In this document: positions 1 through 1,036 of the stretch, in pieces
Position numbering within the stretch: position 1 is the first letter of the stretch
How the letters are laid out: the number at the start of each line of letters is the position of its first letter
Sequence record: OR846502.1
Source of the DNA: a phage
Strand: one strand, 5' to 3'
Length of the DNA: 1,036 nt
Position numbers and translations under genes: made by a program
The notes under the pieces: generated by a model
The model's input: the letters and a program-made list of their open reading frames with translations, nothing else
What the model was told of the DNA's origin: nothing
Databases searched by the model: none

Positions 1-483
1 ATCGCTGCGGCTTTCCACGCGGGGTTTGAGTTCATCGCCCGGTTCAGGCTTTGGCTCCCGTTTTTTCACAGGCAAGTTCACCACAATACTTTCCCCGCGT
101 TCGGCCTCTTCTTTGAGAAGTGGAAGCCTGCCCGTCCAGTCCTCCTTCGGCTGAGGCTCAAACATGCCATTAAACAGCCGGGCCTCTTTCACATCCGCCA
201 GCGCCAGTTTGGTTGCGATAGTGCTTATCTGCATTTCGGAAAGCTCGCCAGCGCGGATCACACGAACACTGCGACGGCCGTTATCAACGATGTTTAATCG
301 TTCCAGTTCTGCCAGTTGCCTTTTGCCCAGATAAACAGGCGGCACATCATCCCACGCCCTTTTACCTTCGCTCTCGATCCAGTGCTGCACATGTGAATAG
401 GCATCTTCACCCGCAAAGATAATCGCCTCAGTAAATTTATCTTTCGGCAGAAATTTGATATTCGGGGCATTCTTCATCTTCAT
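1..483 (-). CDS. Hypothetical protein, N-terminal 161 codons (3' end beyond window start). Begins MKMKNAPNIKFLPKDKFTEAIIFAGEDAYSHVQHWIESEGKRAWDDVPP... and in-window part ends ...NLPVKKREPKPEPGDELKPRVESRSD
   Basis: Manual translation of the reverse complement of 1..483 gives an uninterrupted frame from the ATG at 483..481 to the window edge; each 60-nt block was checked against the plus strand. An SD-like AAGGTG (497..492 on the minus strand) sits 8 nt upstream of the ATG. The start overlaps the upstream stop (TGATG). Not in the ORF track because no stop codon falls inside the window. Confidence 0.8.
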   Translation of the reverse strand, partial: MKMKNAPNIKFLPKDKFTEAIIFAGEDAYSHVQHWIESEGKRAWDDVPPVYLGKRQLAELERLNIVDNGRRSVRVIRAGELSEMQISTIATKLALADVKEARLFNGMFEPQPKEDWTGRLPLLKEEAERGESIVVNLPVKKREPKPEPGDELKPRVESRSD

Positions 484-848
484 CAGTGCAACACCTTATT
501 GGACATATCCGCGCCCAGGTCTTCATGCAGGTACTCAAGGTGGCAGCTTTTCACTATCTGCAACCCCATTTCGTTAATATCGCCATCGTCGGTAAAGCAG
601 GTCAGCAGAATATCCCGCAAACGCCTTAACCCCTCATCGCGCCCGAATTCTTCAAAGCAGCCAAAAATCATATATTTCATCAATACGTTTTCAGTTACGC
701 GCGGCTCCAGCGTGAAGCGATAGCGGGCCATATACTTATCGCTTTCCACCAGCAAGGTTGCCGAACCGGTTTCCGCTATCTGGTGAGCAATACAGGTTTC
801 GGTCAGTTTGCGGAACAATGGGCCTATCACTTCAAAAATATCGGTCAT
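483..848 (-). CDS. Hypothetical small acidic protein, 121 aa, complete; function unknown
   Basis: ORF track entry 483..848 (-). The ATG at 848..846 is preceded on the minus strand by GGAGG (863..859) with a 10-nt spacer. The stop TGA (485..483) overlaps the start of the downstream gene. By my count the protein has about 21 D/E against 13 K/R, so net negative. I recognise no catalytic motif (no Walker A, no CxxC pairs). Confidence 0.8.
   Translation of the reverse strand: MTDIFEVIGPLFRKLTETCIAHQIAETGSATLLVESDKYMARYRFTLEPRVTENVLMKYMIFGCFEEFGRDEGLRRLRDILLTCFTDDGDINEMGLQIVKSCHLEYLHEDLGADMSNKVLH
492..497 (-). promoter_or_regulatory. Shine-Dalgarno-like sequence (AAGGTG) for the downstream gene starting at 483, embedded in the 3' end of the 121-aa gene
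   Basis: The plus strand reads cacctt at 492..497, which is AAGGTG on the minus strand, 8 nt upstream of the ATG at 483..481. Confidence 0.5.
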
Positions 849-1036
849 TGCGGGATACCTCCGCTCATCTGAAATTTGCCAAGTAATGGGTGATACCAGT
901 ACGCCGATCCATATTTGCGCTTCGCGCTGCGCAGAACCTGCCTCGCCACCTCTCTGAACTTGTTATCCGGCGCGATAAAGCCACCAGCTTTCATTCTGAC
1001 CAGCATCACGCCCGTGTTTTTTGCCAGCTCTTCGGC
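845..1036 (-). CDS. Hypothetical protein, C-terminal 63 codons only (5' end beyond window). In-window translation: AEELAKNTGVMLVRMKAGGFIAPDNKFREVARQVLRSAKRKYGSAYWYHPLLGKFQMSGGIPQ*
   Basis: Manual translation of the reverse complement of 845..1036: only one of the three minus-strand frames is open across the whole segment, the other two hit stops within about 30 codons. It ends at TGA (847..845), which overlaps the ATG of the next gene (848..846) in an ATGA arrangement. The tail is basic (about 11 K/R against 4 D/E). Not in the ORF track, presumably because it is truncated by the window edge. Internal ATGs exist, so a short ORF starting inside the window cannot be excluded. Confidence 0.6.
   Translation of the reverse strand, partial: AEELAKNTGVMLVRMKAGGFIAPDNKFREVARQVLRSAKRKYGSAYWYHPLLGKFQMSGGIPQ
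859..863 (-). promoter_or_regulatory. Shine-Dalgarno sequence (GGAGG) for the 121-aa gene, embedded in the 3' end of the upstream gene
   Basis: The plus strand reads cctcc at 859..863, which is GGAGG on the minus strand, 10 nt upstream of the ATG at 848..846. Confidence 0.6.

Follow-up and report, generated by a model that had tools for sequence, protein, structure and literature searches.

Among the phage satellites of enterobacteria, P4 offers the closest described parallel to the locus analyzed here. Control of plasmid copy number has been attributed to the P4 gene cnr, which 90% of P4-like elements are reported to carry (PMC8628076). In the P4 genome, the gene directly upstream of that for the alpha primase-helicase is ORF106, that is, cnr (DUF5375). 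Studies attributed to Terzano in 1994 and to Ziegelin in 1997 reportedly found that Cnr binds alpha and stimulates the binding of alpha to the origin. [quoted passage not shown] Descriptions of the way in which PICI-type satellites regulate their own replication once induced are scant, and usually only the replicase and the origin are annotated; the cf-PICI paper, searched for these terms, does not deal with the small genes that precede the replicase. Here we analyze a 1,036-nucleotide (nt) stretch of phage DNA (sequence record OR846502.1; hereinafter, the window, meaning this whole stretch) that carries, all on the minus strand, a complete small gene, B, preceded by the 3' part of gene A and followed by the 5' part of gene C, which encodes the superfamily 3 (SF3) primase-helicase (replicase) of a satellite island. 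We tentatively propose, with rather less than even confidence, that the product of B is a Cnr-like modulator of the initiation of satellite replication. What sets B apart is its fixed place before SF3 replicases together with its probable kinship with Cnr and with three unannotated protein families.

The genomic context of B was assessed in the Escherichia coli 873.10 locus (L001), in 23 IMG/VR contigs that carry B, and in the loci L002, L003, and L004. In 27 of the 27 loci with readable downstream sequence, B lies inside a satellite, immediately 5' of the gene for the SF3 primase-helicase and in the same orientation, and in the 23 IMG/VR loci, L002, L003, and L004, the B homologs overlap the start of the replicase gene by 1–4 nt. 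In most of these loci, the replicase combines the N-terminal domain present in gene C (NTD1) with DUF927. The arrangement extends to the most distant full-length homolog, P0027 (32% identical to B), in L003, where it precedes an NTD1+DUF927 gene and follows a gene that is unrelated to A. The element in L003 is another satellite, which encodes a capsid of the lambda E type, a head-decoration protein (HDPD), and AlpA; compared with the island, this locus shows 33% identity for B, 34% for the replicase, and 46% for the N-terminal domain, that is, B and the replicase have diverged about equally. In L001, the full coding sequence (CDS) of gene C spans 10348-12483 and encodes a protein with Pfam DUF927 at residues 160–439 (E = 5e-50) and an N-terminal part that matches PHROG 2850 and PHROG 1139 'DNA primase'. 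The 340-bp gap 3' of gene C contains, at L001 10043-10326, at least 14 iterons, TGTTGGTTCA / TGAACCAACA, in both orientations, and this array is probably the replication origin of the island. Given that gene C encodes an SF3 replicase and that the iterons come next, B is the gene immediately before the unit formed by the replicase and the putative origin.

Gene B is a real gene under selection and not a chance open reading frame (ORF), because it is annotated in RefSeq (L001 12483-12848), matches PHROG 7417 (function not known) end to end (E = 2e-85), and shows dN/dS of 0.07–0.27 in comparison with six diverged copies, which indicates purifying selection. As the first-pass annotation had proposed, B is coupled to both neighbors: the stop codon of A and the start codon of B overlap by 4 nt in the ATGA at 845-848 (junction sequence CAATGACC), the stop of B and the start of C overlap by 1 nt in the TGATG at 481-485, and a Shine-Dalgarno (SD) sequence precedes each start (Table 1). 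Because the K-V codons near the end of B double as the SD of the replicase gene, part of the conservation of the C-terminal KV(L/V)H of B (window 483-497) may be maintained at the RNA level. A scan of the operon for promoters and terminators yielded no more sites than were found in shuffled sequences.

The family to which B belongs is narrow. A word-indexed search recovered 25 clusters, all from Enterobacteriaceae and all at least 69% identical, and a scan of the GTDB representative genomes found no copy of B. An exhaustive hidden Markov model (HMM) search of 1.84 billion cluster representatives gave 8 hits with only three full-length 50%-identity clusters, so that a deeper B family could not be built. 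Searches of Pfam (even at E ≤ 10), NCBIfam, PADLOC, and the PDB sequences yielded no matches, literature searches by protein accession found nothing, and no characterized enzyme family was matched by B in the HMM and structure searches. The AlphaFold2 model of B, built with 17 homologs (pLDDT 89.7, pTM 0.81), consists of a helix (residues 4–27), a hairpin (strands 31–36 and 41–46), and three more helices (49–68, 70–82, and 93–118), with a short bridged loop before the long C-terminal helix. A Foldseek comparison of this model with the PDB revealed no fold relative, the best match being ribosomal protein uS7 (E = 0.39). The four cysteines (residues 19, 64, 84, and 102) and four histidines (22, 103, 108, and 121) counted in the first-pass annotation were all found on recount, as was the lack of a canonical zinc-binding arrangement: C19 and C102 vary among close homologs, and P0027 has replacements or shifts at C64, C84, H103, and H108, so that a metal site is unlikely.

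Another line of evidence comes from profile comparisons with three unannotated families, of ~200 aa (hereinafter, the long family), 113 aa (p113), and 123 aa (f123), that occupy the slot upstream of Zn-ribbon/Toprim/DUF927 primases. Comparison with hhalign of the B profile with those of the three families produced E-values of 0.0035 for the long family (94 columns, beyond all column shuffles), 0.009 for p113 (91 columns), and 0.027 for f123 (91 columns), with 13–21% identity over the aligned columns. When the three families were merged, the E-value was 9e-4, with 101 of the 121 residues of B aligned and an HHsuite probability of 23%; none of the 120 column shuffles reached the observed value of 25.9 (mean 11.7 ± 2.2, maximum 23.1), and the null alignments comprised 13 columns on average. 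The long family in turn matched Cnr/DUF5375 with E-values from 3e-4 to 7e-4, a score reached by 0 of 200 shuffles, and one member of this family has a precomputed PF17345 hit. In a search with the long-family HMM against a background of 662 decoy ORFs, P4 Cnr ranked first and a B protein second; in a decoy ranking with 452 ORFs, three of the five B/Cnr sequences were among the top eight, and two of these produced by far the longest alignments (87 and 91 columns). A joint MAFFT alignment of B, p113, f123, the long family, and Cnr is collinear; the elements in common are L-[FYW]-R-[KRW], located in helix 1, hG-x3-G, the motif G-x-(L/I)-(T/S/N)-x-x-G, and, in four of the five families, a terminal histidine; the fuller form of this motif in B, DG-x-(I/L)-(N/T/S)-x-x-G, recurs in p113, f123, the long family, and Cnr. 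Taken together, these comparisons appear to support, albeit weakly, a remote homology of B to the pre-replicase families and, via these, to Cnr/DUF5375. The balance tilts toward B being homologous to the three families, whereas homology of B to Cnr is possible but falls somewhat short of an even chance.

Several observations were made along the way on these families. In L111/L112, consecutive genes for proteins of 200, 113, and 123 aa (8001-9319) precede a Zn_ribbon/Toprim/DUF927 primase gene, and the members of this tandem trio look mutually paralogous and paralogous to B; also in this island, downstream of the primase gene, are genes for ejection proteins of the P22 gp7/gp20/gp16 type. The long family (P0149-P0268; P0176) comprises 593 clusters at E ≤ 0.001, without Pfam annotation. 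A terminal histidine is present in B, the long family, f123, and most Cnr proteins. Also weakly matched by the Cnr (DUF5375) HMM (E = 0.012 in a set of 662 ORFs) is an ORF of ~93 aa located upstream of A (L023 3721-4002 and L028 3003-3281), where L001 has an Icd-like gene; the stretch IACELA(T/A)LL of these ORFs resembles IACALLEDL of Cnr, which may be due to chance.

Placed side by side, B (121 aa) and P4 Cnr (106 aa) are both small proteins encoded immediately 5' of, and on the same strand as, an SF3 primase-helicase gene in an enterobacterial phage satellite, and both are optional but common in their own satellite lineage. Their sequences are collinear in the MAFFT alignment, with L-[FYW]-R-[KR] starting helix 1, hG-x3-G, a (L/I)-(S/N)-x-x-G-L stretch (LSFLGL in Cnr and INEMGL in B), and VLH at the C-terminus, and are linked indirectly, at the profile level, through the long family. 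The two differ in that Cnr lacks the beta-hairpin of B in the alignment and, at pI 6.95, is neutral in contrast to the acidic B; a 14-nt gap separates cnr from the alpha gene whereas B overlaps the replicase gene; and the partner replicase is P4 alpha in one case and NTD1+DUF927 in the other. The three families share with B the position directly upstream of a DUF927-type replicase gene and a mostly acidic composition, and the long and 123-aa families end in histidine; for the long family, the predicted order of elements, helix, hairpin, and three helices, is that of B. The long family has an extra N-terminal beta-rich domain of ~70 residues compared to B, and this domain plus the hairpin insertion compared to Cnr. 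Unlike B, which is a single gene, the three families occur in tandem in one island.

If B is indeed a Cnr-like modulator, it would be made together with the SF3 primase-helicase via translational coupling, would act in the manner of P4 Cnr by modulating the initiator at the iteron origin, and would thereby tune when, or how much, the induced satellite replicates. Binding of B to the initiator or the origin complex, and the direction of its effect on replication, are elements of this scheme that we only infer. The earlier suggestion that B is an adaptor or accessory subunit is compatible with such a role. More speculatively, and with somewhat less confidence than in the role of B itself, we consider it possible that B, the 113-aa, 123-aa, and ~200-aa families, and P4 Cnr comprise one unrecognized superfamily of small pre-replicase proteins that are present, singly or in tandem, before the SF3 primase-helicase genes of most enterobacterial satellites and that regulate initiator activity, meaning copy number or the timing of post-induction replication; in that case, B would be the first of these regulators to be recognized in cf-PICIs. 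Should B and its relatives prove to be Cnr-like regulators, the copy-number control of P4 would be one case of a mechanism common to satellite classes, several hundred 'hypothetical' clusters would gain candidate functions, and a genetic handle on the replication and transfer of cf-PICIs would become available.

Two sets of observations weigh against this proposal. The first concerns homology. The HHsuite probabilities of the remote matches are 2–23%, so that each is weak individually, and when real single-sequence decoys are used, the remote-homology signal, judged by score alone, falls within the tail of the noise. Direct comparison of B with DUF5375 using hhalign yields E = 0.49 (probability 0.1%), the scan of B against PF17345 gives no hit even at E ≤ 10 (gathering score 30 bits; P4 Cnr scores 210.9 bits in the same scan), and no similarity was found between the single sequences of B and P4 Cnr. 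The search of the B model against BFVD, a set of predicted viral structures, returned nothing at E ≤ 0.001 and no Cnr-like structure. The AlphaFold2 model of the long family is of low confidence (pLDDT 64.5) and was therefore used for the order of secondary-structure elements only, which in its C-terminal domain is the same as in B.

The second set concerns the relationship of B with the replicase. At least three replicase architectures, with differing N-terminal domains and helicase families, are found behind B: in addition to NTD1+DUF927, L028 encodes NTD1 joined to a D5_N/DUF5906/Pox_D5 helicase, and L023 encodes a replicase with a different N-terminus (NTD2) and a DUF5906/VapE-type helicase; the replicase of L004, of which only the first 75 residues are on the contig, has an N-terminus as in L023. 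From island to island, A, B, and the three parts of C differ in identity independently of one another, and the lack of co-variation of the B alleles with A or C argues against a tight, specific interface between B and the replicase. An unbiased count was obtained from 80 loci fetched with the replicase as the query: 21 contain A, B, and NTD1, 3 contain A and NTD1 without B, 26 contain NTD1 without either gene, 30 have other replicase N-termini, and none has B without A. Thus, 29 of the 50 islands with an NTD1 replicase are devoid of B, so that replication as such does not require it. In L056 and L057, the replicase gene directly follows A (homologs at L056 2594-3007 and L057 2621-3007), which shows that B is optional, a gene-sized insertion or deletion with exact gene boundaries. 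The adjacency could merely reflect the position of B as the last gene of the early module, beside an exchangeable cassette of replicase and origin.

The tolerance of very different replicases, the lack of co-variation, and the absence from sister islands fit equally well with the strongest competing explanation, namely, that B is a stand-alone, 'moron-like' early accessory gene that is the last one in the early operon and acts on a component of the host or the helper phage, not on the replicase of its own element, for example, in helper interference, counter-defense, or recruitment of a host replisome factor. Apart from the precise insertion of B, this explanation is favored by the diversity of its slot, which in sister islands holds many unrelated small ORFs (for example, acidic ones of 58–75 aa and basic ones of 100–107 aa); by the presence in L023 of a B that is only 17% diverged despite the entirely different replicase; and by the confinement of the narrow family to Enterobacteriaceae. 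However, B matches no PADLOC defense model and no anti-defense family in Pfam, its dN/dS values give no sign of diversifying selection, and its place before an SF3 replicase holds down to 32% identity; furthermore, the families that are weakly similar to B are pre-replicase genes as well, and one of these is linked to a known replication regulator. We regard a host or helper target as unlikely, albeit less so than the readings that follow; if it is correct, B is one more accessory gene with a narrow distribution.

A functional partnership with A, whereby B would be the acidic partner or antagonist of a basic, probably DNA-binding protein, with the pair regulating transcription of the island or use of the origin, seems less probable still. 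Gene A (full CDS, L001 12845-13213; PHROG 6610 'unknown') encodes a protein that possibly consists of an N-terminal coiled coil and a helix-turn-helix-like C-terminal half and is, on this reading of its sequence, predicted to bind DNA; the search of Pfam found nothing. The opposite charges of the two proteins (pI 9.7 and 4.9), the ATGA coupling of their genes, and the fact that B never occurs without A among the 80 replicase loci speak for such a pair. Conversely, the distant homolog in L003 is preceded by an unrelated ORF and so occurs without A, whereas A is found without B in L051, L056, and L057 (in L051, the A homolog at 2532-2987 has an altered C-terminus), and the alleles of the two genes are shuffled independently: L017 combines an A that is 81% identical with a B that is 98% identical, and L026 an A of 96% with a B of 79%.

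One of the readings offered in the first-pass annotation, namely, a DNA mimic or anti-restriction factor, drew on the acidity of the protein and its place in an operon of a mobile element; a protein of this kind, like Ocr, ArdA, or ArdB, would protect incoming satellite DNA. The operon indeed belongs to a mobile element, a phage satellite island, and on recount, the 121-aa product of the minus-strand ORF at 848..483 contains 21 D+E and 13 K+R, as originally counted, with a net charge of −8.2 at pH 7 and pI of 4.90. Negative net charge, from −5 to −15, is kept among the homologs, and the small size, the acidity, and the early-operon position of B likewise speak for a mimic. However, per 100 aa, B carries −6.6, which is ordinary for this island, where hyp111 (−9.9), the head-tail connector (−8.2), and hyp62 (−8.1) are more acidic and hyp104 (−5.8) and hyp170 (−5.3) come just behind; Ocr-type mimics carry a far more negative charge. 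The acidity of B is real and conserved, yet unexceptional within the island, and charge is not the interesting feature of this protein. The two acidic clusters highlighted in the first pass, FEEFGRDEG and TDDGDINE, are present in the protein but do not stand as the signature of a mimic. Both coincide with conserved glycine-containing motifs between helices, in which E67, G69, G89, and G95 are invariant and F68, G73, and D88 nearly so. In the aligned remote relatives, the glycines but not the acidic residues persist: EFGRDEG of B corresponds to KYGTKAG in the long family and to QHGEEKG in Cnr. No match to the HMM or fold of Ocr, ArdA, or ArdB/KlcA was detected in Pfam, the PDB, or BFVD (for ArdB, E = 3.9 and TM = 0.19), and B would be expressed from the integrated island after induction and not from the leading end of entering DNA. 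A DNA mimic is accordingly highly improbable, and this reading is unsupported whether B turns out to be Cnr-like or directed at the host or helper. Least credible of all is the idea that B, together with A or C, forms a two-gene addiction module in which it is the antitoxin (or the toxin), to which the small size, overlap, and opposite charge of A and B might point, given that searches of Pfam, NCBIfam, and PADLOC place neither A nor B in a toxin or antitoxin family, that A and B each occur without the other, and that neither neighbor is a toxin, A being basic and possibly DNA-binding and C a 711-aa replicase.

Table 1 Features of the 1,036-nt window.
Feature	Position	Strand	Description
Gene A, last 63 codons + stop	845..1036	(-)	Cut by the window edge; full protein 122 aa, pI 9.7
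SD GGAGG of gene B	858..862	(-)	Within the 3' terminal part of gene A; lies 9 nt ahead of ATG 848-846
Gene B	483..848	(-)	Complete CDS + stop, 121 aa; WP_001549749.1; PHROG 7417; small acidic alpha+beta protein
FEEFGRDEG, codons 65-73 of B	630..656	(-)	Junction of helix 2 and helix 3; conserved E67-F68-G69...G73 motif
TDDGDINE, codons 86-93 of B	570..593	(-)	Loop that precedes the final helix; contributes to the DG-x-(I/L)-(N/T/S)-x-x-G motif
SD AAGGTG of gene C	492..497	(-)	In B codons K118-V119, 8 nt before ATG 483-481
Gene C, first 161 codons	1..483	(-)	Truncated at the edge of the window; encodes NTD1, the N-terminal domain of the 711-aa DUF927 SF3 replicase

In E. coli 873.10, the window is part of a ~15-kb island located between fis and yhdJ. 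The island starts with genes for an integrase, a DUF6387 protein, a helix-turn-helix regulator, a KilAC antirepressor, a YlcI/YnfO-family protein (on the opposite strand), and an Icd-like protein; these are followed by a trio of small genes that ends with A, then B, the replicase gene C, and two more small genes; and the island ends with the genes for the major capsid protein, protease, portal, head closure protein, connector, HNH protein, small terminase subunit (TerS), and large terminase subunit (TerL). The RefSeq annotation of this region (L001 2029-17768) includes no tail genes and no lysis genes, in agreement with the published gene-content criteria for cf-PICIs, and the IMG/VR contigs that hold B are 14–19 kb long, with one of 27 kb. 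By gene content, therefore, the island is a phage satellite of the capsid-forming PICI type, for which induction by a helper phage and release as small tail-less capsids that take helper tails are predicted; it has its gene content in common with cf-PICIs such as EcCIEDL933, but is not among the named, tested elements.

Two E. coli chromosomes match the window at 100% identity and six more at 88–95%, and the window is carried by 8 of the 5426 complete E. coli genomes. The same DNA is found, at 100% identity, in a 3.2-kb record named 'Salmonella phage S.Kent 1-2-1' (OR851044.1) and, at 99.5% identity, at the end (the last ~17 kb) of a 106-kb record named 'Klebsiella phage P12620-1' (PQ569648.1; L002), which may be a co-assembly of a phage and a satellite. 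Given 99.5–100% identical DNA in E. coli and in the Salmonella and Klebsiella phage records, the island occurs in three genera.

As for the replicases themselves, the ORFs that precede related primase genes in Pasteurella Pmp7 and vB_KppS-Ant were checked as possible relatives of B and proved to be unrelated. The first ~150 residues of the replicase, a domain without a Pfam model, act as a mobile module that is fused either to DUF927 or to a D5_N/DUF5906/Pox_D5 helicase (L028 4225-6042). The DUF927 cores found elsewhere (L058-L110) bear Zn-ribbon/Toprim or other N-termini, and another N-terminus is found in the replicase of L023 (5033-6712) as well.

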